Below are positions 36 to 11,431 of a stretch of DNA of 11,431 nucleotides, one piece after another. The number at the start of each line of letters is the position of its first letter. The first letter of the stretch is position 1. A program made the position numbers and the translations under genes. The notes beneath the pieces were generated by a model. It worked only from the letters and a program-made list of their open reading frames with translations. It did no database searches and was not told the origin of the DNA. Source of the stretch: a virus; UHGV virus genome UHGV-1944538; one strand, 5' to 3'.

Positions 36-68
36 ATGGCTAAAGTTCTGGTGCTTTTACATAGCTAA
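36..68 (+). pseudogene. wrbA: 5' stub of wrbA left at attL: native start codon and first 22 nt of wrbA fused to element DNA, reading MAKVLVLLHS-stop
   Basis: 36-57 atggctaaagttctggtgcttt equals the start of the wrbA ORF whose continuation (ttattattccatgtacgg...) is found at 11321 onward; after position 57 the sequence diverges and an in-frame TAA follows at 66-68. Confidence 0.7.
51..57. repeat. attL core GTGCTTT (shared between wrbA and element)
   Basis: Left junction matches native wrbA through position 57; identical 7-mer at the right junction. Confidence 0.6.
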
Positions 69-368
69 ACACGTACATTCAACTACCTGTTAAAAACAGG
101 ACAATATCAGGTGAATCTCTATGCAATTTAAAGGCATTTCCCCAAGTATCTAAGCAGTTTTACACAGATTCTATGCAGTATCGGTATAGTCCCTTTTTAT
201 CCTAACTTATTGAAATATATAGAGAATCTGTGAAGTCTCTTTTCAGGGTAAACTGTATCGTGTTAGTCGTCCCTCTCTCGACTCCTAGAAAAGTGCTATA
301 TACAGGACTATATGACGCTATTCATGCAGTTGGTCACATGGTGTAACTATCAAACCCTTAACGATTTC

Positions 369-476
369 CTACGTGAAAGTTAGGAGTTGATGGTTATAGT
401 TCCTTCGTAGTTCCTCTTAAAAAATCACTTACAGACATCTTAATCTCTATACAGATTTCACGTAGAACACGCTTAA
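369..476 (+). repeat. Diverged third copy of the inverted-repeat element: arms CTACGTGAAA (369-378) and TTTCACGTAG (456-465), followed by CACGCTTAA (468-476)
   Basis: Arms and 3' tail identical to the 70-bp repeats at 6514 and 8659, but the spacer between arms is 77 nt instead of 38. Confidence 0.5.
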
Positions 477-993
477 TGCGTAAAAGAGTCATTATGTTAA
501 AAACGCACTGTATACGTATCAGTACTGATTTATAAGGGTTTTGTTTATTTGAAGATAAGAGGCTATACAGCACCTTGAGAGCATGTCTTGTAAGTCATTG
601 ACATATAAGGTCACAGAAGTTTGTGTCTGTTACAGAGAAAACTGGACAGGACTTCACAGAGCTATAAAATGTTACAGCTATTGATAGGTGAAATCTTCTT
701 GATAGATGCTTTGAAGTGTGGTGAAGGTTTCTTGATGTGGAGTTAACAGATGCTATGAAGAAAGTCAATAGTTGGTTATAGATATTTTAACTGCTTTTGC
801 AAAGGGGGTGCTATATCGTGAATCTGGGGTACTTAACAGCCATCAATTGAGTGTAGATATTTTTTAAGATTATCGGTGAAGGGGAATGTAGAGGGAGTGC
901 TACGATTTTTATAAAAAAATTAGAAGATGAAAAATCACTGTATAAACTTTAATCAGACCTATCGACAAGTTTATGTCAGGTCTTTATTAACTA

Positions 994-1518
994 TCAGCTA
1001 AAATTCCTGTATCCATATTTACCATGCAATTCCAGTGATGCAGCATCATAGGCTTTTGCAGCTTCTTCTGCTGTATTAAACTGACCCAGATAATGAGATT
1101 TTCCATTACAGCGTATTGTAGCCCAGAACCCCTTGTTATCCACTCTTGGGTGTACTCCCTTGTAACCTGATTTTGTTTTCTTTCTGGGTATCATGTTTGC
1201 CTGATTCTGCTCTTTGGTAACCTCTCGAAGATTGCTAATAGCATTATTTAGCGGGTCACCATCTATATGGTCAATCCATAGTTTAGCTTGTTTACCATGA
1301 TATAGATAGAAAATAACCTGATGCACCTTAAGTATTCTGAACTTACCATTAATCCGACAACCAAAAGCCAGATATTGTCTTGGTTTAGGATTTACAAGTG
1401 AACCCTCGATTTTTACACCTTTTCTAAATAATGTTCCAGATTCAAAATCTGCTGTAATATTTTCATTGATGTATCTTATAACTTCTTCAGGCCATGCCTT
1501 GGTATACCTAGTCACCAT
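994..1518 (-). CDS. HNH-AP2 family homing endonuclease (N-terminal NUMOD4/HNH_3-like domain plus C-terminal AP2 DNA-binding domain)
   Basis: 174-aa ORF. HNH-type motif WIDHIDGDPLNNAISNLREVTKEQN; AP2-type C-terminus GYKGVHPRVDNKGFWATIRCNGKSHYLGQFNTAEEAAKAYDAASLELHGKYGYRNF. AAGGA about 7 nt upstream of ATG on the minus strand. Confidence 0.85.
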   Translation of the reverse strand: MVTRYTKAWPEEVIRYINENITADFESGTLFRKGVKIEGSLVNPKPRQYLAFGCRINGKFRILKVHQVIFYLYHGKQAKLWIDHIDGDPLNNAISNLREVTKEQNQANMIPRKKTKSGYKGVHPRVDNKGFWATIRCNGKSHYLGQFNTAEEAAKAYDAASLELHGKYGYRNFS

Positions 1519-1576
1519 AATATTCCTTATTTCAATTAACTTGTTGAGGTAATACTACCAAGAAACTTCATATCAT

Positions 1577-1604
1577 ATTTTAGATAATGATTGATATACA
1601 TCAA
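1577..1604 (-). promoter_or_regulatory. Candidate sigma70-type promoter for the HNH-AP2 gene (minus strand TTGATG-N16-TAAAAT)
   Basis: Reverse complement of 1599-1604 is TTGATG and of 1577-1582 is TAAAAT, 16-nt spacer, about 60 nt upstream of the start at 1518. Confidence 0.3.
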
Positions 1605-2369
1605 AAAACTATTAAGTTCTCGGAAGAAGACTATATAGATTAATGATGCTCTTATTGTAGGAGCATCTATTCCCAACAAGGGAACTACACAGAAACTAGA
1701 GAATATGCTCTGTAACACCTTCACAGTATCTATATCAGGTCAGATTCAGAGGTCTTGATAGAATCTTCAAAGGTACTTGACAGATAACTATGAAGTTGCT
1801 AGGAAGGGATGTTTAACGGGAGGAAAGATACGATATAACCCGAAGGGAGAGTATCATCTTAACAATTATTCTTAAGAGATACCTTGAAAAGACACTTAAC
1901 AGAACCACCAAGAAGAGAGGGAACGATAAGACCCAGAGGTAGTGACCTGTTAAACAGTTCGTTTCAAAGCTCTTAAGAGTCTGTTAAGTAGGGTCATGTG
2001 ACAATCTTACCATTTTGTCAATGCTTTTGTCTTTGACCTAAATCAATAAAATGTATCGTTTGATATGTTTTTAAACAAAATAGTTAAAAATCTTTTTAGA
2101 GGTGCGCTTCGCTTGTGTCACCAATATCATTCTTCCCTGTCTAAGAGGGAAGTTACAGGGCATTTCAAAGCCCTCAATAGGCAAACCGAGGAATACGGAA
2201 AACCGAGGGAAGAAAACTATTGTGATTACCTTGAACAAGGTCTGTAAAGGTCGTTTAAGAGGTCGGTTAAGAAAGGAGCTTCCCTCTCTGGGGTTATCGC
2301 TCTTCTCTCGATTAGTGGATTGATTAAGAAGACCTCTGAAGTTTCTCTGTGAAGGTGCTGAACAGCTAT

Positions 2370-2423
2370 TATATATGGCTAATTACAACTTATTGAAAAA
2401 TAAACATTTTTAGAAATTACTGT
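2370..2423 (+). repeat. 54-bp direct repeat, copy A (TATATATGG..ATTACAACTTATTGAAAAATAA..TTTTAGAAATTACTGT)
   Basis: Aligns without gaps to 2465-2518 at a constant 95-bp offset with about 5 mismatches. Confidence 0.7.
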
Positions 2424-2464
2424 TAAGGTTGCAGAGTTGTCTGTGAAGAGACTTGTCAGTTCTC

Positions 2465-2518
2465 TATATATGGGTGATTACAACTTATTGAAAAATAAGA
2501 ACTTTTAGAAATTACTGT
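2465..2518 (+). repeat. 54-bp direct repeat, copy B
   Basis: See copy A; both lie in the ORF-poor 1725-3111 region. Confidence 0.7.
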
Positions 2519-2827
2519 CAGAGAGGTGAATACTTGATAGATACAGCTTTCCGGTTCTGTCAAGCTATTTTTTAATAGATAGCACAAAGTGCTAAAGACA
2601 CCCCTATACCATCTCGTACAGGGGGTTTTGGAGGGATTAACGGGGGTCTGTATGGTCGTTATCCTTAAGGTCAAGCGTCCATGTACGACCGAACAGTCTA
2701 AAGACAACAAGCACCCTGACGAGGACGTAGCGAAGTAACAGACCTGCGAACAGACCCACACCTCCACCAGCCCACAAATCAGGTGACCCCAATTCCTGAG
2801 GGAGATTTACCATTAAATTTCCTTGTA

Positions 2828-2925
2828 AGACGCTCTCAATCGCATTCTGACACAAAAAAGTACCTGACCTTATAGTTGACCTGAAGAGGACGTTTAACTC
2901 GTTACAGAGCGATTGAAGAGGTCTG
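2828..2925 (+). repeat. Inverted-repeat-bounded unit I (98 bp): 5' block AGACGCTCTCAATCGCATTCT..CAAAAAA, variable middle, 3' block ..CTCGTTACAGAGCGATTGAAGAGGTCTG
   Basis: 5' and 3' blocks are conserved with unit II at 4468-4588; CTCAATCGC (2835-2843) is the reverse complement of GCGATTGAG-type sequence at 2909-2917, with an extended imperfect inverted repeat of about 16 bp. Confidence 0.7.
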
Positions 2926-3031
2926 CGTGCAATGCAATAACCATGTGACCAAATACATGGCCACGCCTTTATATTTTACTCTCCCCATAGGACCATTATA
3001 CCACAGATGTTAATAAAATGTTAAAAAATAC

Positions 3032-3060
3032 TTGACATTAGCCTTTGAAACTGCTAGTAT
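3032..3060 (+). promoter_or_regulatory. Candidate sigma70-type promoter TTGACA-N17-TAGTAT upstream of the 3112 operon
   Basis: TTGACA at 3032-3037, 17-nt spacer, TAGTAT at 3055-3060, followed by TGTATATATGAGTTAACAGA; about 50 nt upstream of ATG 3112. Confidence 0.45.
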
Positions 3061-3111
3061 TGTATATATGAGTTAACAGAATAATAACATCTTATGAGGG
3101 TCAGAATATGA

Positions 3112-3666
3112 ATGAGAGATGCAGAATTTAGAGCGATGCTTCAAGCATCAAGGGAACGTAACAGACACAACGGTTACAGCTACACAGACACCCCCACCAG
3201 CTACGAAGTCCCAGCCTTTACCAAATCCGAACGTAAAAACATTGAAGCGGTCATTCGTAGCATTACGCCACGAGACAGATATATGCCAACCAGAAAGAGC
3301 ACGAAGAATAGCTTGAAACCTTTCCTGATGAGCTTTGATTCTTACGAGCAATTACCATCAAAAATTGAAGATGTAATTATCGGTACTTGTCGCAGTCTTG
3401 GAAGGGATAATTATCACCGGAAAGTTTTCTATTTACTGCGAAGTCTTGATGAGATTAGTTCAGGCGCAATAACAAATTATCTTCAGCGACAAGCAACCAG
3501 ACTTAGCTACGAATTACCGTCTGATGGGTATTGCGCTAATTTAAGTACCATTTGCAGTAAAGTTATCGAGACAATCAATCATCATGTTGAGGTTGGTAAT
3601 ATCAACCTTACGACAAGTGAGCCAGACTTTGAATTTGACGTATACGCACAAGCAGAGGAATTTTAA
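3112..3666 (+). CDS. Hypothetical protein, 184 aa, acidic C-terminus; first gene of a four-gene coupled operon
   Basis: Long ORF downstream of the promoter-like site; GAGGG upstream of the start; stop 3664-3666 sits 1 nt before the next start codon. Confidence 0.7.
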   Translation: MRDAEFRAMLQASRERNRHNGYSYTDTPTSYEVPAFTKSERKNIEAVIRSITPRDRYMPTRKSTKNSLKPFLMSFDSYEQLPSKIEDVIIGTCRSLGRDNYHRKVFYLLRSLDEISSGAITNYLQRQATRLSYELPSDGYCANLSTICSKVIETINHHVEVGNINLTTSEPDFEFDVYAQAEEF

Positions 3667-3667
3667 A

Positions 3668-3955
3668 ATGAAAAACAAACACACTTTAACCCGTATTACA
3701 AAGACAGCCTTTGACGAACTTAACCGAATCAAAAACATTACAGGTCTGCCACACTCAGCAGTGATGAAGCTTGCAATTAACCGTGATATTAACGAACAGG
3801 ATTTGCTTAATAGTCGCTTAGAGGCTGCAAGACACCATATCAGGATTAAGCAAGATGACCTTGATAGTCTGAAATCTTTAAATGTTTTTGGACTGGATTT
3901 AGCAAGGTTACTAAGTATCAAAATTCACAAGTTAGCGGATAAATTGGGGGTTTAA
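3668..3955 (+). CDS. Hypothetical small protein, 95 aa (start placed at the ATG with an RBS, not at the track's upstream ATG 3584)
   Basis: GAGGA at 3655-3659, 8 nt before ATG 3668; the track start at 3584 lies inside the preceding gene. Confidence 0.65.
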   Translation: MKNKHTLTRITKTAFDELNRIKNITGLPHSAVMKLAINRDINEQDLLNSRLEAARHHIRIKQDDLDSLKSLNVFGLDLARLLSIKIHKLADKLGV

Positions 3956-4170
3956 TGCTATGCGTTACCTTTGAATATCACACGGATAAAATGATTCGCT
4001 ACATCTCCGACCTCCTGATTGAAGGAAACGGATTCGGTGACATCCACAACTCAAAAGATATTTTCATTAAAGCCATTGGCCCAAATGAAGTACTGAAAGC
4101 AGCAGTCAAGCCAGAATGGTTTGAGCGTCACAAGATTGAATTAGGTTATTGGGGTGAGGAGGTTTTATGA
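3955..4170 (+). CDS. Hypothetical small protein, 71 aa
   Basis: Start overlaps the upstream stop (TAATG at 3953-3957); GGGGG just upstream. Confidence 0.6.
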   Translation: MLCVTFEYHTDKMIRYISDLLIEGNGFGDIHNSKDIFIKAIGPNEVLKAAVKPEWFERHKIELGYWGEEVL

Positions 4171-4454
4171 AACCTTGGCATGAAGATGTTAGACGATATT
4201 TTACAGAACACCTTATCTATGATGAATCCAGTGATTCCCTGTGCTGGTCTGATGGAGAGTCAGTCACGATAAATACCGACGACTACGGCAACAAAACATT
4301 TAATATAGGCCGATATACTTTCTACGTGAAATATGTTGTCTGGTTCCTTTATCATGGCTATCAATCCAATAAGCAAATTATCCATCTAAATGGTAACAGA
4401 GCCGATACCAGACCAAAAAATCTTATGCAAGTCCGAGACTTTAAGAGAAATTAG
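4167..4454 (+). CDS. Truncated HNH_3-like protein, 95 aa, paralogous to the N-terminal half of the HNH-AP2 endonuclease but lacking the AP2 domain
   Basis: ATGA overlap with the upstream stop; GAGGAGG RBS. WHEDVRRYFTEHLIYDESSDSLCWS and YVVWFLYHGYQSNKQIIHLNGNRADTRPKNL parallel WPEEVIRYINENITADFESGTLFRK and HQVIFYLYHGKQAKLWIDHIDGDPLNNAISNL in the 994-1518 product. Confidence 0.65.
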   Translation: MKPWHEDVRRYFTEHLIYDESSDSLCWSDGESVTINTDDYGNKTFNIGRYTFYVKYVVWFLYHGYQSNKQIIHLNGNRADTRPKNLMQVRDFKRN

Positions 4455-4467
4455 AAAAACAGCTTCT

Positions 4468-4588
4468 CAGACGCTCTCAATCGCATTCTAACGCAAAAAA
4501 CTATCTTATTTTAGGGTGGGTAATACCACTGTACAGACTACCCCTGAAAAAGACTGTTTAGCTCGTTACAGAGCGATTGAGGAGGTCT
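4468..4588 (+). repeat. Inverted-repeat-bounded unit II (121 bp), homolog of unit I with a longer variable middle
   Basis: 5' block 4468-4500 and 3' block 4551-4588 nearly identical to unit I; it fills the gap between the 4454 stop and the RBS of the 4611 gene. Confidence 0.7.
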
Positions 4589-4610
4589 GGTAAAAAGGAG
4601 ATTTTAAGAA

Positions 4611-4940
4611 ATGAGAGAATTAAACTTCCCGCTACAGATTTTCGTTGATAGCGACACTGCTATGATGGTGCAAAGCTTCACTGATGCAGGTATTAGCATT
4701 GACTTTGACAGGCTGTTAAAGCTAATGGCTGAGAACTCAGAAGCAATTGAAGATTTTATTCAGGAAATTGAAACTGGTGACCCACGTTTTATGTTTCCCG
4801 TTACCGACTCAAACATGAAGCGCCTTATTATTGAGGAAACTAACCGATACAGCGTTAGCCCTGAAAAATATCTCAAGGCGGCTATAGTAATTTTGTACGC
4901 TGACAATGTTTTGGTTACGGATTCGAAGGTGGTGCATTAA
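4611..4940 (+). CDS. Hypothetical protein, 109 aa, acidic
   Basis: AAGGAG at 4595-4600 upstream of ATG 4611; clean ORF. Confidence 0.65.
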   Translation: MRELNFPLQIFVDSDTAMMVQSFTDAGISIDFDRLLKLMAENSEAIEDFIQEIETGDPRFMFPVTDSNMKRLIIEETNRYSVSPEKYLKAAIVILYADNVLVTDSKVVH

Positions 4941-5017
4941 TGGGCTTAATAATTGCTTGGACAGCTTTGGGTTTATTTGTTGGTTGCTGGGTAGGTAACA
5001 CAGTAAATAAGAATTGA
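4940..5017 (+). CDS. Candidate 25-aa single-helix hydrophobic peptide (MGLIIAWTALGLFVGCWVGNTVNKN), translationally coupled to the upstream gene
   Basis: ATG overlaps the upstream TAA; AAGGTGG at 4926-4932, 7 nt before the ATG. Not in the ORF track because of its size. Confidence 0.35.
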   Translation: MGLIIAWTALGLFVGCWVGNTVNKN

Positions 5018-5041
5018 TGTTACCAATCTGTTAAAAAGCTG

Positions 5042-5070
5042 TTGACAAATAACCTTGAGCATGACATAAT
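5042..5070 (+). promoter_or_regulatory. Candidate sigma70-type promoter TTGACA-N17-CATAAT
   Basis: TTGACA 5042-5047, 17-nt spacer, CATAAT 5065-5070, followed by TGTATATATAGG as at the 3032 promoter. Confidence 0.45.
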
Positions 5071-5076
5071 TGTATA

Positions 5077-5268
5077 TATAGGAAGAGCAATTTTTCCTAA
5101 AATCATATTTTCAATAATCCGATGGATGGATATTCTGAGTTGGAAAGGTGCAATGCTTTTCGTCATGGCCTTTCAGTTTAGTCTGAGAGGCTATCTCAAA
5201 AAGTCTTTGTTCATTCATTATTGAACCCTTACAGCTTTGCCCTAATCATGAGTTAGGGCGTTTTCTTT
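5077..5268 (+). ncRNA. Candidate small RNA of about 190 nt between promoter 5042-5070 and the intrinsic terminator at 5239-5268; could instead encode a small hydrophobic peptide
   Basis: Promoter and terminator bracket a region with no RBS-preceded ORF; the track ORF 5042-5224 begins at the -35 hexamer itself. An internal 23-codon frame (5152-5223, MLFVMAFQFSLRGYLKKSLFIHY) lacks a good RBS. Confidence 0.3.
5239..5268 (+). terminator. Rho-independent terminator: stem GCCCTAA/TTAGGGC, 7-nt loop, then GTTTTCTTT
   Basis: Perfect 7-bp stem at 5239-5245 and 5253-5259 followed by a T-rich tract. Confidence 0.5.
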
Positions 5269-5337
5269 AAGAGTTTTAAACAGAGCTTTTAAAGAAAGTT
5301 TTTCCTGAAACTTCGTTAACGTTATAAGCAAACCTCC

Positions 5338-5370
5338 AAAGCCCTTCACAGAAACGTTTAGGGCTTTTCT
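5338..5370 (+). terminator. Second, weaker terminator-like hairpin: AAGCCCT ... AGGGCTT then TTCTT
   Basis: 7-bp stem with a 14-nt loop and a T-rich tail; shares the GCCCT..TTAGGGC..TTT pattern with the 5239 hairpin. Confidence 0.3.
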
Positions 5371-5468
5371 TAATAGAGCATCTTTAATAAATCGTTAAGT
5401 CATCTTCTAAGTGTATTGGCGTTGAAGGTGCTCTATTAAGAAATAAACCACACTTAGAGGAAGTTATA

Positions 5469-6179
5469 ATGACAAACGATTTATATATTAACGGTAAAAA
5501 GGTTGATAGCTTCGGTGACTGGTCGCCACAGACTGAACATCCAGCTATCGCTATTCAGCGTCAAGAGCATGACAAGCGCATTGAGCTTGAGCAAGAGCTA
5601 AAGATGTCACCAAAAACAACCATCTTTGTGTCTCCTGAGCCTCAAGAGATGCCTGATATTTGCAAGAGTGAAGCATTATTTAATCTTGAGCGTGAATATT
5701 ACCCACTGCTAAAAGAACAGCGCCTTAGATTAGATGACGCTTACGACAATGTGAAGAACTTTGAAGAGACTGAAAAGCCAACTGATTTTGATATTGAAGT
5801 GGAAATTAGACAAAACCCATTCGTATATTACTCAGTTGAGGATAATGATGGTTTTGGTACAGCAAGAGAGAATATCTCAAAAGTTCTTCAAAACATCCCT
5901 GAAGGATTCCGTTTAATTGATGTCAGACCAGCTTCACGCGGTACAGGTTCATATATTTTACTGTCTGATAAAACAGATGAAGAGATTTGTCAGTTAGCTG
6001 AAAAGAATCTACTTGAGCGTCATAGCAAAAAATTAAACAGATTTAAGCAAGAGCTTGCTAACCAGCTTAGAGCTATGAAGCAACTAATCAGTGACTATGA
6101 AACGCAGAAGAAGGTTGCTATGCAAGCCGATATTGAGCAGCTTACGAAGATTTCTCAGAAATATAGCAAGGCACTTTAA
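5469..6179 (+). CDS. Hypothetical protein, 236 aa, acidic with a predicted coiled-coil C-terminal third
   Basis: GAGGAAG 6 nt upstream of the ATG; long clean ORF; the C-terminus has a heptad-like charged pattern. Confidence 0.7.
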   Translation: MTNDLYINGKKVDSFGDWSPQTEHPAIAIQRQEHDKRIELEQELKMSPKTTIFVSPEPQEMPDICKSEALFNLEREYYPLLKEQRLRLDDAYDNVKNFEETEKPTDFDIEVEIRQNPFVYYSVEDNDGFGTARENISKVLQNIPEGFRLIDVRPASRGTGSYILLSDKTDEEICQLAEKNLLERHSKKLNRFKQELANQLRAMKQLISDYETQKKVAMQADIEQLTKISQKYSKAL

Positions 6180-6201
6180 CTATGAATTAAAGAGGTGATT
6201 A

Positions 6202-6411
6202 ATGTTTGAAGAACGTTTAGAGACTATTCGGTCTGTTTGTGAAAACTTAAAGTTACAAAATAAGCCAACCTTAAGAATTAAAAACAAACGTCAAGTTATC
6301 ACCTCACACAAACCAAAAACACGCAAGATTCCAAAATGGTGTATTGACCGTATCCCTTCTGATGCTCAAATCATAGGTGAAACGGAATTACATTATCTTG
6401 TCAGGCATTAA
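6202..6411 (+). CDS. Hypothetical small basic protein, 69 aa
   Basis: AAGAGGTGA RBS 5 nt upstream; Lys/Arg-rich; followed by a terminator-like hairpin. Confidence 0.6.
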   Translation: MFEERLETIRSVCENLKLQNKPTLRIKNKRQVITSHKPKTRKIPKWCIDRIPSDAQIIGETELHYLVRH

Positions 6412-6463
6412 AAAAAAAGAATTGGTTGGGTGTATGAGATAGGTTCTATCGAATCTATAACAC

Positions 6464-6506
6464 GGGGAGAGATTATCGATATTATTCGGTAGTTTCTCCC
6501 TTTTTT
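6464..6506 (+). terminator. Terminator-like hairpin (GGGAGA ... TCTCCC) followed by TTTTTT
   Basis: 6-bp G/C-rich stem at 6465-6470 and 6495-6500 with a long loop containing ATCGAT, then T6 at 6501-6506, immediately before repeat copy 1. Confidence 0.45.
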
Positions 6507-6513
6507 GTATGTG

Positions 6514-6583
6514 TGCTACGTGAAATCTTCTGAACAGATATACCCACCAAAAATTATTTTTTACGTAGCTCACGCTTAACAGA
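6514..6583 (+). repeat. 70-bp direct repeat, copy 1, containing an 11-bp inverted repeat (GCTACGTGAAA ... TTTTACGTAGC, one mismatch) and a CACGCTTAACAGA tail; lies immediately upstream of the 6599 gene
   Basis: 67 of 70 identity with 8659-8728. Confidence 0.8.
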
Positions 6584-6598
6584 GGTGAAATATGAACA

Positions 6599-8647
6599 AT
6601 GGCACAATTTAAAGTTGATAGTTTTATCGTTGAGCTAGGCTTCAGCGAGAACGTTATTAAGGGCTTGCAAAGAGTTGAAAAGGCAGCTTTGCAGTCAGCA
6701 CAAAGAATTGAACGTAATTTGAATAGAGCGTTTAAGGTCGATACCAAGCAATTTGACAGCAATCTGACAAGTTCTTTGAAGTCAATGGAAGGAAAAATTA
6801 ATAAGACCTTTGACCGTCTGGAAGCTAGAGCAAAAAATACTAAAGCTTTCCAGTTTACCACCAGATTTAATGACACTGTTAATCCTCCAAAACAACCGAG
6901 ACAGCCACGAATTAGCGGAAACAGAGCAATCACAGCAGCTTATTCAGCTAATATGACCAAGCTGAAAGGTCTTAACCCAATTGTCGAGAAATACATTAAG
7001 AGCCAGTTTTACGCATTAAGTAGTAAAGCTGGTCAGATGGATAACACCAAGTTTAATGAAGCCCTTGCTAAACTAAATTCAAGTGTAAGAGAAGCAATCA
7101 CTAAAGCCAGAGGTCATACATCCACCAGCATTAACGGTGACAGAGCAGCTAATAGTCTTGATAGTTTGAGTTCAGCAGCAGTTAAAACAGCAGGTGCATT
7201 TATCAGCTTTCAAGCTGTACTATCCGCTTATCAGCGAGTAATGGAAGTTGGCCTTCAACGTGCATCATCGGAAAGAAGTATTGATTTCGTATTTGATAAA
7301 GATGCAGGCCAAGTAAAAGAGTTCACAAAGTCATTAGCTCAAACAACGGGTTTAGATATCGCTGAACTGCAATCACAGTTTGCTGGTTTTGGTGCTTCAG
7401 CTAAAGAGTCTATGGGTATTCAAGGTTCTGAAGAACTTTTTAAAAGTATGATTGGCTATTCTCGTTTAATGGGTCGAAGTGAAGAAGAGATTAAGCGAGC
7501 ACTGACAGCATTATCACAGATGGCTGGTAAGGGTCAGATTATGGCTGAAGAGCTTAAGGGGCAATTAGCTGAAGCTGTTCCTGGTATGGTTCAGGTATTC
7601 GCTAAAGCAACCGGAAAGACTGAACAGGAATTATTTGATGCCATGAAGAAGGGGGCTTTAAAATCTGCCGATACTCTTCAGAAGGTCACTCAGGAACTGA
7701 ATAGACAAATCACCGCTAAAGGTGGCTGGAAAGCTATTTCAGAAAGTACACAGGCACAGCTAGGGAACCTGAAAAACTCTTGGAATACCACGCTTGATAG
7801 TATCTTCAGAGGTTCTGAAAATGGTCTGCAAGATTTCACACGAAGCCTAACAACGCTTTTAAACGCTCTTGGTGGAAGTGGTAAAACATTAGGTGAAAGT
7901 TTTGGTAGCTTGATGAGCGATATGTCACATGGTGTCGATAACCTGACTGATATTAGTTACAGGGTAAGGGCGTTCTTTGACGAGGTGACATTGGCTTATC
8001 GTGGTTTAACCGATGAACAAAAGAAAGTTGTTGATGCTTTAGGTTCTGGCTTGATTAATAGTTTAAAAGTCTTGGCTGGTGTTATTGCTGTGAATAAAGT
8101 TGTTGGTGTAACCAGAAGTATTTACGGGCTTATGACTGCTATCACAAGATTAGGTCAGGTCGCTGATACTACAGTGGATAACGTGAATAGAAAGAACGGG
8201 AAACCATCAAGGTTTAATCTTGGGAATATGCTATTAGCTGGTAGTGCTATCTATGCAGGTTATGAGAGATTAGCTTCTACGCCTGAACGAATGGAAGCAC
8301 AAGCTAAATTACCAGAGCTGGCTAAAGAGTCTGGACTTAAGCCAGTATTTACTATGGACGATGTGAAAGGTTGGTTTAATAGTGCAGCTATGAATCTTGC
8401 TAACTTCCAGCATCCAGAATTAATCACCATGAGACAAGATGCGGCATTAACGAATACGGATATCCAAAGCCTGAGAGATGAAATTAGTGCTTTGAGCAAA
8501 CGTATTCAGGAGCCTGTGAAAGTTTCACTTGGTGGTGAAGTTGCCATTAAACCAGATGAAACCAGCTTTATGACCTTTAGCAGTAATATCTACGACCAAT
8601 ACGCAGAAGCTACGCTATTAAGTTCATCATTCCCAGAAGATGATTGA
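6599..8647 (+). CDS. 682-aa protein with a tape-measure-type domain (central GKGQIMAEELKGQLAEAVPGMVQVFAKATGKTEQELFDAMKKGALKSADTLQKVTQEL segment) and a coiled-coil-rich N-terminus
   Basis: Long ORF; the central segment resembles, from memory, the conserved domain of siphovirus/lambdoid tape measure proteins. GAGGTG lies 11 nt upstream of the ATG. Domain assignment not verified by search. Confidence 0.75.
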   Translation: MAQFKVDSFIVELGFSENVIKGLQRVEKAALQSAQRIERNLNRAFKVDTKQFDSNLTSSLKSMEGKINKTFDRLEARAKNTKAFQFTTRFNDTVNPPKQPRQPRISGNRAITAAYSANMTKLKGLNPIVEKYIKSQFYALSSKAGQMDNTKFNEALAKLNSSVREAITKARGHTSTSINGDRAANSLDSLSSAAVKTAGAFISFQAVLSAYQRVMEVGLQRASSERSIDFVFDKDAGQVKEFTKSLAQTTGLDIAELQSQFAGFGASAKESMGIQGSEELFKSMIGYSRLMGRSEEEIKRALTALSQMAGKGQIMAEELKGQLAEAVPGMVQVFAKATGKTEQELFDAMKKGALKSADTLQKVTQELNRQITAKGGWKAISESTQAQLGNLKNSWNTTLDSIFRGSENGLQDFTRSLTTLLNALGGSGKTLGESFGSLMSDMSHGVDNLTDISYRVRAFFDEVTLAYRGLTDEQKKVVDALGSGLINSLKVLAGVIAVNKVVGVTRSIYGLMTAITRLGQVADTTVDNVNRKNGKPSRFNLGNMLLAGSAIYAGYERLASTPERMEAQAKLPELAKESGLKPVFTMDDVKGWFNSAAMNLANFQHPELITMRQDAALTNTDIQSLRDEISALSKRIQEPVKVSLGGEVAIKPDETSFMTFSSNIYDQYAEATLLSSSFPEDD

Positions 8648-8658
8648 TAATAGTCGAA

Positions 8659-8728
8659 TGCTACGTGAAATCTCCTGAACGGATATACCCACCAAAAATT
8701 ATTTTTCACGTAGCTCACGCTTAACAGA
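8659..8728 (+). repeat. 70-bp direct repeat, copy 2 (perfect 11-bp inverted arms GCTACGTGAAA / TTTCACGTAGC), immediately after the 6599-8647 gene and upstream of the 8805 gene
   Basis: Near-identical to 6514-6583; the two copies bracket the tape-measure-like gene. Confidence 0.8.
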
Positions 8729-8804
8729 TAAAACACTTATATATCAAAGGCTTGGTTAAAAATGATTAAAATACACTAAGCCTTTGAAATCAAAGGAGAA
8801 TTTA

Positions 8805-9578
8805 ATGATTTACACTAATCAGCTTCGTTACACTGGCAAAGATGGCGTTTACTTCCACTTAAGAGATAATGTAGATGCCTTCTTAACTTTATCAGCAACT
8901 GAAAATATGGAATTTGACAGCCCTATGCAGGTAACTACACAGAACATGCAATCAGGGCAAACCGTCACAGATAATGTGCAAAGAGCACCCAGAACAATCA
9001 CTATTAGCGGTGTCGTTGTAGTTGGCTATGAAGGAAGCTTATTATTAACTCGTCAGGGTCAATTAGTAGAAAACTTCATTGACACTCTTGAAAGCTGGAG
9101 AGACCAGAAGCAAATTATTTCGGTCATCTGTAAAGACGGTATCAAAATTGATGATTCCATTATTACGAGTTTTAAAGCCTCTAAAGATGTTGGTATTTCA
9201 AATGGTCTAAGAGTCCAGCTAACTTTTCAGGAAATTAACTTTAAAGCTATTGTGGGTCAGACTGATATTTCATCTGCGACTGGAAAAGCCGCGACTACTA
9301 ATGATGGTGGTGCTACCAGTAAAAAGAATGCGGGTAACGTGACTACTGAACGCAATAACGCACCTATGTTGCTGTGTCAGGAACTGTACAGCTACTCAGC
9401 ATCTGAGCTATCTGATGAAGCGTTAAAAGCCCGTAGTAATTGCTCTAAAAATGTCACGGTGAAAGATGGTGTAAGCACCTTCTCAGATGCCGCTAATGCG
9501 CAAGCTTCAAAAGTGCTTAAGTCGGGTAATGCTTTACGGAAGTTTAGTGTGAATCCGAATAAGAAGGGCACTTATTGA
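8805..9578 (+). CDS. Hypothetical protein, 257 aa, with a Ser/Thr/Asn/Gly-rich linker ([30 protein letters not shown]); positionally a possible tail-module partner of the upstream gene
   Basis: AGGAG at 8794-8798, 6 nt before ATG 8805; the track's earlier start at 8784 is a TTG without an RBS. No confident domain assignment. Confidence 0.65.
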
Positions 9579-9597: not shown

Positions 9598-11241
9598 CTA
9601 AGCGTCCACCTCTTCCATATCACCAGCAGGATAAATCCTTGTTACTGGTTCACCAAAAATAAGCATATCATCTAGTGACTGCATCTCATCGGTTGCTTCT
9701 TCAAGCGTTAAGGTGTGGTCATCTTTACCATCAAGAGGGAAACCACGAATCATATTTCCATTGTGAAGATATATATCAACCAGCTTTTCATTACCAGAAA
9801 CAACAATCTCTTTCACCAGACGCTTAATGATAATCTGGGCTTCAGTTCTCCCCTCTACAGACTCCATATCAAGACCGCTTAAATCCAAGCTTGATACAGA
9901 TTTTACCCTCGCCTTTTCTCGTGATAACTGAACTATCAGTTCATCTTTTTCTTCCTGCTTAATCCGTAGTGCTTCTTGAATCTGAGTGATGTTAGGAAGC
10001 TGTATCAGCGTCTCAGTGAGTTTTTCCAGTTCACTATCAACGGTGTTTAGTCTGCGTTGTAGCTCATCTAATTTAGCTGTGTCAGTAGCTTCATCGTGTA
10101 GCTGTGACAGTTTGCTGAACAGACGACTACAAAGCTGTGTATCAAGTAACTTTCTGGACACTGTACCGTAGCTACAACGGGACTCCTTATTACCATTGCA
10201 ACGGTAAGTACCTTGATAAACGGGTTTACGTATCCCTGTAGGAGTCATTACAAGCCCACACTTACAACGGATAAGCCCCTTCAGTATGTTCACATATAGC
10301 CAGTGTTCACCGCTGGATGTTTTCCCCTTCCCTGTTTCCTCTAACAGTTGCTGTACAGCGTAAAACTTAGAGTCTGTGACAATCTGAGGATAGAACCCTT
10401 CAATTTCTTCACGTAACACTGTTTTACGGTCTTCTGTAGAAATCTTAGCGGGAAGGTAACCTAATACACTTCGTGAAGTCAGGATGTGTTTAACGCTTAA
10501 TGCTGACCAGTTGCCATCCGGTTTCTTAGTCTTGGATATTCTGACCTTACGCTGATTAATGGTCGGGTAACCTTGTTCGTTTAGCCATTTGCAGATAGCA
10601 AACATCGACATACCAGAAAGACGCTTGTCATAGATGATATTCACCAGTGACGCTTTATCTTCATCAACGATGTAGTGTGAACCGTCTTCTGATAGCTCTA
10701 ACCATCCGGGGGCTTGCTTACCCATAGGCTTCTTAAGTTCTCTTGCAAGCTGTGTTTTATGGTTCCAGACCTGAGCTATACGCTTTTGCTTAACAAGAGA
10801 TTCTTGGTGTGCTCGCTCAGCTATGATGATGTGCTTAATCAACTTCACAGGGTCTGTTAATGCTGATTTGTCGTAGAGTTCACCATCTCCCAGAGTCAGT
10901 ATAGAGACCCCTTTCCTCAGTATCTGCCTGACATCATCTATAGCTGTGTCGATATCAGCCCTACTGAAGCGGTCAAAGTTCTCTACAACAATCAAGGAAC
11001 CTTCTGGAATAGCCTCAGACATAACATTTTCAAACATACGTCTGAAGTCAGAACCTTGATTCTTATGTTGCTGGTGAAAACCAGATTTACCCTTATCAAC
11101 ATATCTGTGAGCAGGAAGAAGGTAATAATCGTTTTTGTGCTTAGAGTAGAAAGCATCAATGAGGTTTGTTTGCCGTCTTAAGGAGTCTCCTGAGTCTTGC
11201 TCTTTAGTACTCCACCTGATGTATGTCACTAGCAGCTTCAT
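9598..11241 (-). CDS. int: Large serine recombinase (serine integrase) of the element
   Basis: 547 aa. N-terminal resolvase-type motif YIRWSTKEQ with a candidate nucleophile Ser; Cys-rich zinc-ribbon-like segment [11 protein letters not shown]...[14 protein letters not shown]; C-terminal coiled coil. Located next to attR and read inward. Confidence 0.9.
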
Positions 11242-11292
11242 ATCTTCGGACTATGCTTATCTAAGTGGTTCATTGAACAGGAGAACAATGAT

Positions 11293-11431
11293 ATGAGTGT
11301 TAAGGCAAGAATACTAGTGCTTTATTATTCCATGTACGGACATATTGAAACGATGGCACGCGCAGTTGCTGAGGGTGCAAGCAAAGTCGATGGCGCAGAA
11401 GTTGTCGTTAAGCGTGTACCGGAAACCATGC
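11293..11431 (+). CDS. wrbA: wrbA, NAD(P)H:quinone oxidoreductase, 5' part with element-supplied start ([46 protein letters not shown]); partial, runs off the window
   Basis: From 11317 the sequence and translation match the WrbA N-terminus as I remember it (native [43 protein letters not shown]); AGGAG at 11279-11283 upstream of the new ATG. Confidence 0.85.
11317..11323. repeat. attR core GTGCTTT
   Basis: Identical to 51-57; wrbA identity resumes exactly here. Confidence 0.6.

Follow-up and report, generated by a model that had tools for sequence, protein, structure and literature searches.

The question raised by this locus is whether, and by what means, the wrbA gene of E. coli can still be translated when a mobile element has inserted itself among its first codons. 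The stretch of DNA that we analyzed (the window, 11,431 bases) is a complete integrative element of ~11.26 kb within E. coli wrbA, a stationary-phase, RpoS-dependent gene, and both junctions with the host are present. Of 5426 complete E. coli genomes, 5417 have a wrbA with 96-99% identity to the wrbA part of the window. The junction with the element occurs in 73 of these genomes, and most of the 5426 have the site uninterrupted. O26:H11 97-3250, O55:H7 DEC5B and ETEC TW11681 are among the strains that bear the element. The explanation we favor, to which we would give a probability of roughly 0.7, is that a serine-recombinase element rebuilds the 5' end of wrbA as it integrates and that production of WrbA is in this way kept. 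The two ends of the element are composed as follows.

36-68, plus strand: stub ORF at attL, made of the native RBS, ATG and 5 native codons, then the core and element DNA (MAKVLVLLHS, then a stop)
51-57: attL copy of the common core GTGCTTT, with the likely crossover dinucleotide GT at 51-52, the best dyad centre
58-80: P' arm of the reconstructed attP, containing CTAAACAC (65-72), which mirrors the P-arm motif GTGTTAAG
11293-11316: P arm of attP, the same bases as the eight codons supplied by the element, with GTGTTAAG at 11297-11304
11293-11323: attR, the start codons supplied by the element plus the core
11317-11323: attR copy of the common core GTGCTTT, with the likely crossover dinucleotide GT at 11317-11318
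11317-11431, plus strand: host-derived wrbA from native codon 6 (Val) onwards; the window ends inside the gene

The empty site of another E. coli reads ATG GCT AAA GTT CTG GTG CTT TAT TAT TCC. attL matches it up to the core and continues with element DNA, and the native wrbA promoter lies upstream of the attL stub, outside the window or at its edge. From the three-way comparison with the empty site it follows that GTGCTTT is the sole sequence common to attL, attR and attB, a short core of 7 bp without long direct repeats. We reconstructed attP by joining both ends of the element. For attP the best dyad centre is the GT with which the core begins, 12 of 24 arm positions being matched; the motif GTGTTwAG is mirrored on both sides of this centre, each time 12 nt from the GT; the symmetry of attB is weak (10-11/24). 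Crossover most likely takes place at this GT, in native codon 6. Since GTGTTAAG is mirrored about the presumed GT centre, the eight new codons would double as the P-arm half-site of the integrase. One metagenomic copy (L023) has GTACTTT at attL and GTGCTTT at attR, a polymorphism consistent with what is expected from a GT crossover if its attP had A at the third position of the core. A search of viral contigs revealed no junction of the excised attP form, and none of the phage records searched carries the integrase of this element. Just past the attL stub there is a hairpin, CCTGT-loop-ACAGG (86-100), whose stem is kept in different copies and whose loop varies (TAAAA, TAATA, AAAA, TAATT). It is not followed by a run of T; it may bind a protein, or weakly impede read-through that comes into the element from the native wrbA promoter.

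The recombinase gene lies at the right end of the element and is directed away from wrbA.

9598-11241, minus strand: int, a large serine recombinase (integrase) of 547 aa with Resolvase, Recombinase and Zn_ribbon_recom domains

The Pfam domains in question are PF00239 (E=9e-11), PF07508 (E=6e-20) and PF13408 (E=2e-4, under the Pfam cutoff), and the int cluster in E. coli has 2970 member sequences. In three of six E. coli loci retrieved (L001 17512-19313; L043 1-256; L046 1-504) int is interrupted or truncated by IS100, IS1203 or another IS3-family element and the chimeric wrbA is intact; the copies of the element with a cut int are probably immobilised. The body of the element (58-9578) includes genes for a tape-measure protein (6599-8647) and a Dit-like distal tail protein (8784-9578), an HNH-AP2 gene (994-1518, minus strand), a second small HNH gene (4167-4454) and many ORFs without a family match. 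Among the element ORFs scanned no match to a capsid or terminase was obtained. The body of ~9.5 kb (window ~91-9578) is also found in E. coli genomes without the int of this element, in some of them at other chromosomal positions. The left ends of related elements vary as well: FEX669 (L001 7349-7897) encodes a small serine recombinase of 182 aa together with a DNA adenine methyltransferase where the window (58-2000) has the HNH-AP2 gene on the opposite strand. The element body looks like a modular, satellite-like family which exchanges integration modules. More distant relatives of the integrase target genes other than wrbA. A relative with 52% identity (L009 1-140) is situated 99 bp from an ORF beginning with MSEMIYGIHA, which we take to be the start of rlmB, and one with 34% identity (L010 2601-3001) adjoins a 121-aa fragment of yecE (DUF72) that has no proper rebuilt start.

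On the other side of the int start codon the element supplies wrbA with a replacement for the start that it loses upon integration.

11242-11292: divergent spacer of 51 bp; on the plus strand a candidate wrbA -10 and 5' UTR, on the minus strand the 5' leader of int
11279-11283, plus strand: Shine-Dalgarno sequence AGGAG, 9 nt upstream of the ATG at 11293-11295
11293-11316, plus strand: eight element codons, ATG AGT GTT AAG GCA AGA ATA CTA (MSVKARIL)

The preliminary description of this DNA had noted the AGGAG ribosome binding site, the ATG at 11293 in frame with wrbA and a divergent region of 51 bp shared with the start of int. All three can be read directly in the sequence, the minus-strand int ORF starting at 11241 and the spacer occupying the bases up to the ATG. 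The same description held that the native start and the first seven codons are removed. The native start is indeed displaced to attL, but comparison of attL, attR and the empty site gives five displaced codons (ATG GCT AAA GTT CTG, or MAKVL) instead of seven. MSVKARIL is then followed by VLYYS, and the exchange of five codons for eight is a net gain of 3 residues over the native WrbA of 198 aa. In six element-bearing E. coli genomes PGAP has annotated exactly this type of start as that of an intact wrbA of 201 aa, and four of these six carry WP_000111568.1. The leader RNA shows nothing unusual in its structure (z = -1.1), the Shine-Dalgarno sequence being placed in the hairpin loop of a weak fold, and the window has no Rfam matches. 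A mini-ORF of two codons, ATG ATA TGA (11288-11296), overlaps the new wrbA ATG out of frame and is invariant in the E. coli-type copies. In related genomes wrbA is followed by yccJ. It is known that wrbA-yccJ is one transcription unit (PMC4222967), so yccJ too depends on the rebuilt 5' end.

The chimeric protein, of which the window includes 46 residues, is similar over its full length to solved structures of WrbA, an NAD(P)H:quinone oxidoreductase, and includes beta-strand 1 and the SMYGH loop that binds FMN. Its residues 5-201 align to residues 2-198 of the solved E. coli WrbA 2r96 (E=1e-127), and over this span the two differ by K3R and V4I only. Solved chains of the WrbA family have 21-33 residues more at the N-terminus, ahead of the aligned region, and these longer chains suggest that an N-terminal extension of WrbA is tolerated. 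We would expect the chimera to be produced and to be enzymatically active.

Homologues of int that are 61-65% identical are present at the same position in wrbA in Klebsiella michiganensis, Enterobacter hormaechei, Erwinia sp. and a metagenome assembly. Wherever the upstream flank is available they are divergent to wrbA-yccJ with a gap of 40-44 bp, and the wrbA genes called beside them encode 205-206 aa, as opposed to the native 198 aa. An equivalent junction in Pantoea dispersa was the sole match when genome contigs were scanned with the attR pattern; a scan of genome contigs with a single int protein confirmed nothing. The attR pattern, a degenerate one, also yielded 17 more metagenomic junctions. 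Seven of the 25 metagenome loci matching the pattern were unrelated flavodoxin-like genes and were dropped. The N-termini and Shine-Dalgarno sequences supplied by the different elements are the following.

E. coli type: N-terminus MSVKARIL, Shine-Dalgarno AGGAG
Klebsiella type: N-terminus MSSSELRGKPRIL, Shine-Dalgarno AAGGA
Enterobacter and P. dispersa type: N-terminus MTDEVRGKARIL, Shine-Dalgarno GGAGGA
Erwinia type: N-terminus MQDEERVKARIL, Shine-Dalgarno AAGGG
Metagenomic group: N-terminus MQDEQRAKTRIL, Shine-Dalgarno GAGGG, GAAGGA or GAGGAA

All five element types have a single in-frame ATG, a purine-rich Shine-Dalgarno sequence 5-9 nt upstream of it and no stop. The extensions borne by the elements end with K-x-R-I-L and differ in length by whole codons. 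The comparison with other wrbA-integrated elements proposed in the preliminary description thus shows that ATG, Shine-Dalgarno sequence and frame recur across genera, in lineages which, because of their shared ancestry, are not independent replicates. All seven substitutions found in the extension within lineages are synonymous, compared with a neutral expectation of 22-31% (P ~1e-4, on seven events only). They comprise GAC/GAT in three groups, GAA/GAG, CAA/CAG, ACA/ACC and ATA/ATT. Between lineages Arg is retained through a change of AGA to CGT. Among 18 distinct E. coli-type loci none of the 51 spacer sites is variable, compared with 36 of 318 adjacent int sites (P ~0.002), and the 24-nt extension has no variable site either. 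At the level of the sequence, these patterns point to translation of the extension and to purifying selection on it. Five element N-termini, each with its ATG and Shine-Dalgarno sequence, and substitutions that are all synonymous support the earlier suggestion that selection keeps WrbA made.

The conservation of this segment could also be attributed to the integrase. The attP arm might have been copied from the wrbA flank, or be attB-like, for binding of the integrase and with no selection for WrbA; the open frame would then be inherited together with constraints on the att site and the int leader, and wrbA would perhaps be silent in the carriers. The extension does overlap the P arm, whose outer motif GTGTTAAG has its mirror image in the P' arm. 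Within the extension the variable base of CGTGnTAAG is the second position of a codon (V/G/A), a nonsynonymous one, and part of the conservation of the extension DNA, for example that of CGTGnTAAG, reflects constraint on the att site and not on coding. The invariance of the spacer need not concern wrbA since the spacer also serves int, and the lack of a consensus promoter (see below) is in accordance with a silent gene. Nevertheless, seven synonymous changes stand against zero nonsynonymous ones, and three of them are in codons 3-5, at least 27 nt from the crossover and beyond a typical half-site of ~25 bp. Furthermore, every lineage keeps the Shine-Dalgarno sequence and the ATG despite diverged surroundings, and the differences in length are whole codons. 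We therefore regard an origin of the frame purely as a by-product of integrase binding as rather unlikely.

As for the origin of the segment, the short MAK form of WrbA is present in most Enterobacterales. A native long form of 205 aa (MQNSEQGKVNIL.. and relatives) is found in Atlantibacter hermannii and in four other lineages, whose proteins begin with MQNNEQGSVK-, MQGNERESVK-, MEGTERKNVK- and MQTTDGAKAR- and whose wrbA neighbors are host genes. In the long-form proteins (L018, L047, L049, L050, L051) there are 7 extra N-terminal residues, and the pattern M-Q/E-x-x-E/D-x-x-x-x-K/R/N precedes (I/V)LVLYYS. The A. hermannii locus (L018), where WrbA has 205 aa and starts with MQNSEQGKVNILVLYYS, was tried as a sixth element variant and ruled out: it has native synteny (TetR regulator, EamA, ymdF-like, wrbA) and no integrase. 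We also considered the possibility that the long-form loci are themselves relics of elements, against which speaks the finding that their flanks contain neither an attL stub nor a remnant of int.

The spacer and extension of the element align with the 5' regions of these native long-form wrbA genes. A block, TGTGCTACGCTT (CTATGCTT in the window), is common to long-form genes and element spacers, in which it precedes the ATG by 34-45 nt; its flanks on both sides are diverged, and in the elements the block adjoins the int start codon. The Klebsiella variant is without this block and has at the same place a CTGACA -35 and a poor -10. From the alignment we conclude that the right end of the element is a copy, by now diverged, of the 5' region of a wrbA gene. 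Owing to this homology to native wrbA 5' regions, the element can be said to carry a surrogate wrbA 5' end, probably including a promoter.

The best candidate for such a promoter is found inside the block.

11251-11258, plus strand: candidate sigma-S-type extended -10, C-TATGCT-T, aligned with the block conserved upstream of native wrbA

The sequence ACTATGCTTAT at 11250-11260 agrees at 8 of 11 positions with the sigma-S extended -10 consensus TCTATACTTAA (PMC3367168) and has C at -13. At the position of the block the native short-form wrbA of Pantoea ananatis has TCTATACTT (-41..-33), which agrees at 9 of 11 positions and would appear to be a perfect sigma-S -10. Of the -10 candidates in the window TATGCT scores highest, weak as it is and accompanied by a 3/6 -35. 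Among seven representatives the corresponding candidate takes first or second place in six, and its distance to the ATG is always 34-42 nt. The idea that the promoter resides in the 51-bp region thus remains plausible rather than proven: the sigma-S-type -10 is in the spacer, whereas the -35 would fall within the first int codons, outside of it. No sigma-70 consensus promoter was detected in 10600-11431 (~830 bp upstream scanned), and for this reason promoter activity is something that we infer. A scan of the junction region for consensus promoters and terminators found none, and the scan of the whole window was at the level of chance (31 matches, 29.9 expected). The copied segment most likely includes a promoter of the sigma-S type. 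CsgD is known to target wrbA and ymdF (PMC10002515). Upstream inputs such as CsgD would be left behind at attL, so the regulation of wrbA may be simplified, and expression that is kept may also be expression that is differently regulated.

The ORF could also be translated from transcripts that start elsewhere, namely by plus-strand read-through from the tape-measure/Dit-like operon (6599-9578), antisense through int, with no promoter in or beside the spacer. Between 9578 and 11293 the prediction of terminators gives a weak 6-bp stem (10300-10316) and nothing strong, which together with the lack of a sigma-70 consensus near the spacer would allow for such transcription. On the other hand, the block TGTGCTACGCTT / CTATGCTT keeps a fixed distance of 34-45 nt to the ATG, and native wrbA genes that have no element upstream have it as well. 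The carriers in which int is cut by an IS also keep the junction intact, and an IS would probably interrupt read-through. Taken together this makes read-through an improbable source of wrbA transcripts.

An in-frame ATG alone is poor proof of a rebuilt gene, because insertion of a Stx-type prophage also yields a called 'wrbA' (MINHILRHVETMA..., without beta-strand 1 and the SMYGH loop). When each position of the element, on either strand, was treated as a pseudo-junction (22,368 in total), an in-frame ATG before a stop was found at 16% of them and an ATG with a Shine-Dalgarno-like motif at 1.1%. That the ATG is merely fortuitous or the ORF an artefact of gene calling, for which the 16%, the Stx case and the 121-aa yecE fragment called with a GTG start beside the 34%-identical recombinase could be cited, is very hard to believe when both signals are so rarely found together, the arrangement is seen again in five element lineages that have diverged, ARIL in place of AKVL imitates the native residues and the segment shows homology to the 5' regions of native wrbA genes.

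The explanation that we favor, a wrbA 5' end rebuilt by the element, can accordingly be outlined as a model. A large serine recombinase would move the element by recombination of attP with an attB spanning the first codons of wrbA. The half-site beside int would be a diverged copy of a wrbA 5' end, consisting of a sigma-S-type -10, a leader of ~30 nt, a Shine-Dalgarno sequence, an ATG and N-terminal codons. If the half-site is such a copy, integration exchanges the promoter, RBS and first five codons of the host for the set of the element. The supplied codons would recreate the start of beta-strand 1, with A-R-I-L replacing A-K-V-L, so that the wrbA-yccJ operon would remain translatable and would probably be expressed in stationary phase, and the native promoter would be left at attL, driving the stub of 10 residues. 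A further proposal, which we consider doubtful, is that the ~75 bp beside int have three jobs, as integrase half-site, as functional sigma-S promoter with leader and as N-terminal coding sequence. They would have been captured from a foreign long-form wrbA, would couple recombination or induction to stationary phase and would strip wrbA-yccJ of inputs of the CsgD type. If this is true, the coupling would come about through the face-to-face overlap with the int start and through the native sigma-S promoter at attL reading into the left end of the element.

A search of the literature found no description of a serine-recombinase element at wrbA. The gene is usually listed among those disrupted by prophages, for example by Bobay et al. 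(PMC3603311), a listing which presumably refers to Stx phages. The element family studied here occupies wrbA in several genera, apparently without inactivating it. For typing schemes this means that an occupied wrbA is not equal to a negative one, and annotation pipelines will report the chimera as a distinct WrbA protein. The locus is a compact case of a serine-integrase att site that seems to be embedded in a module of promoter, leader and N-terminal codons from the wrbA allele of another lineage. It overturns nothing established; its use is for the study of how att sites come into being and of the ways in which elements reduce their cost to the host.

Stx-converting prophages of the 933W / Sp5 type also have wrbA as their target, with TTGAAACSAT as att core (PMC5592225). 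They differ from the element in using a tyrosine integrase and in removing native residues 1-15, which include beta-strand 1 and the SMYGH loop. After insertion of a Stx phage the ATG of the called 'wrbA' and the stop of int share bases (ATGA), and the 15 residues at the native N-terminus are absent. The Stx-phage core TTGAAACGAT is intact in the window at 11345-11354, ~25 bp downstream of the core of the element, and in principle the two could occupy wrbA in tandem.

The logic of the arrangement is the classic, already known one of gene-end duplication at prophage insertion sites. At the icd insertion sites the 3' end is duplicated and the length of the ORF kept (PMC3603311). Phage 21 and e14 in icd resemble the wrbA element in that each sits inside a conserved gene near one end and carries a diverged copy of that end, and it is owing to this copy that the length and frame of the ORF are preserved in all of them. 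The wrbA element differs in that it replaces the 5' end and not the 3' end, relies on a large serine recombinase and gives a product 3-8 residues longer. Because the 5' end is replaced, it must also supply a promoter, an RBS and a start codon. For the promoter the closest functional precedent, by analogy, is HK022 at torS, where integration likewise parts the host gene from its native promoter and where, in the lysogen, a promoter within the end of the prophage was shown to initiate transcription (PMC6814406); in the wrbA element the promoter is a putative one and the first codons are replaced as well. In Streptococcus pyogenes SpyCI is an island at the 5' end of mutL whose promoter serves the downstream host genes (PMC3430984). 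SpyCI interrupts mutL and, through excision, works as a switch that depends on growth phase, whereas the wrbA element restores the ORF while it is integrated. Other elements with large serine recombinases are described inside protein-coding genes, namely skin in sigK, SPbeta, and phi10403S in comK (PMC6957869, PMC5025042, PMC6814406). In such active lysogeny the gene is kept inactive until excision, in contrast to wrbA, whose ORF is restored at attR, and since the gene is rebuilt there excision is not required for its function.
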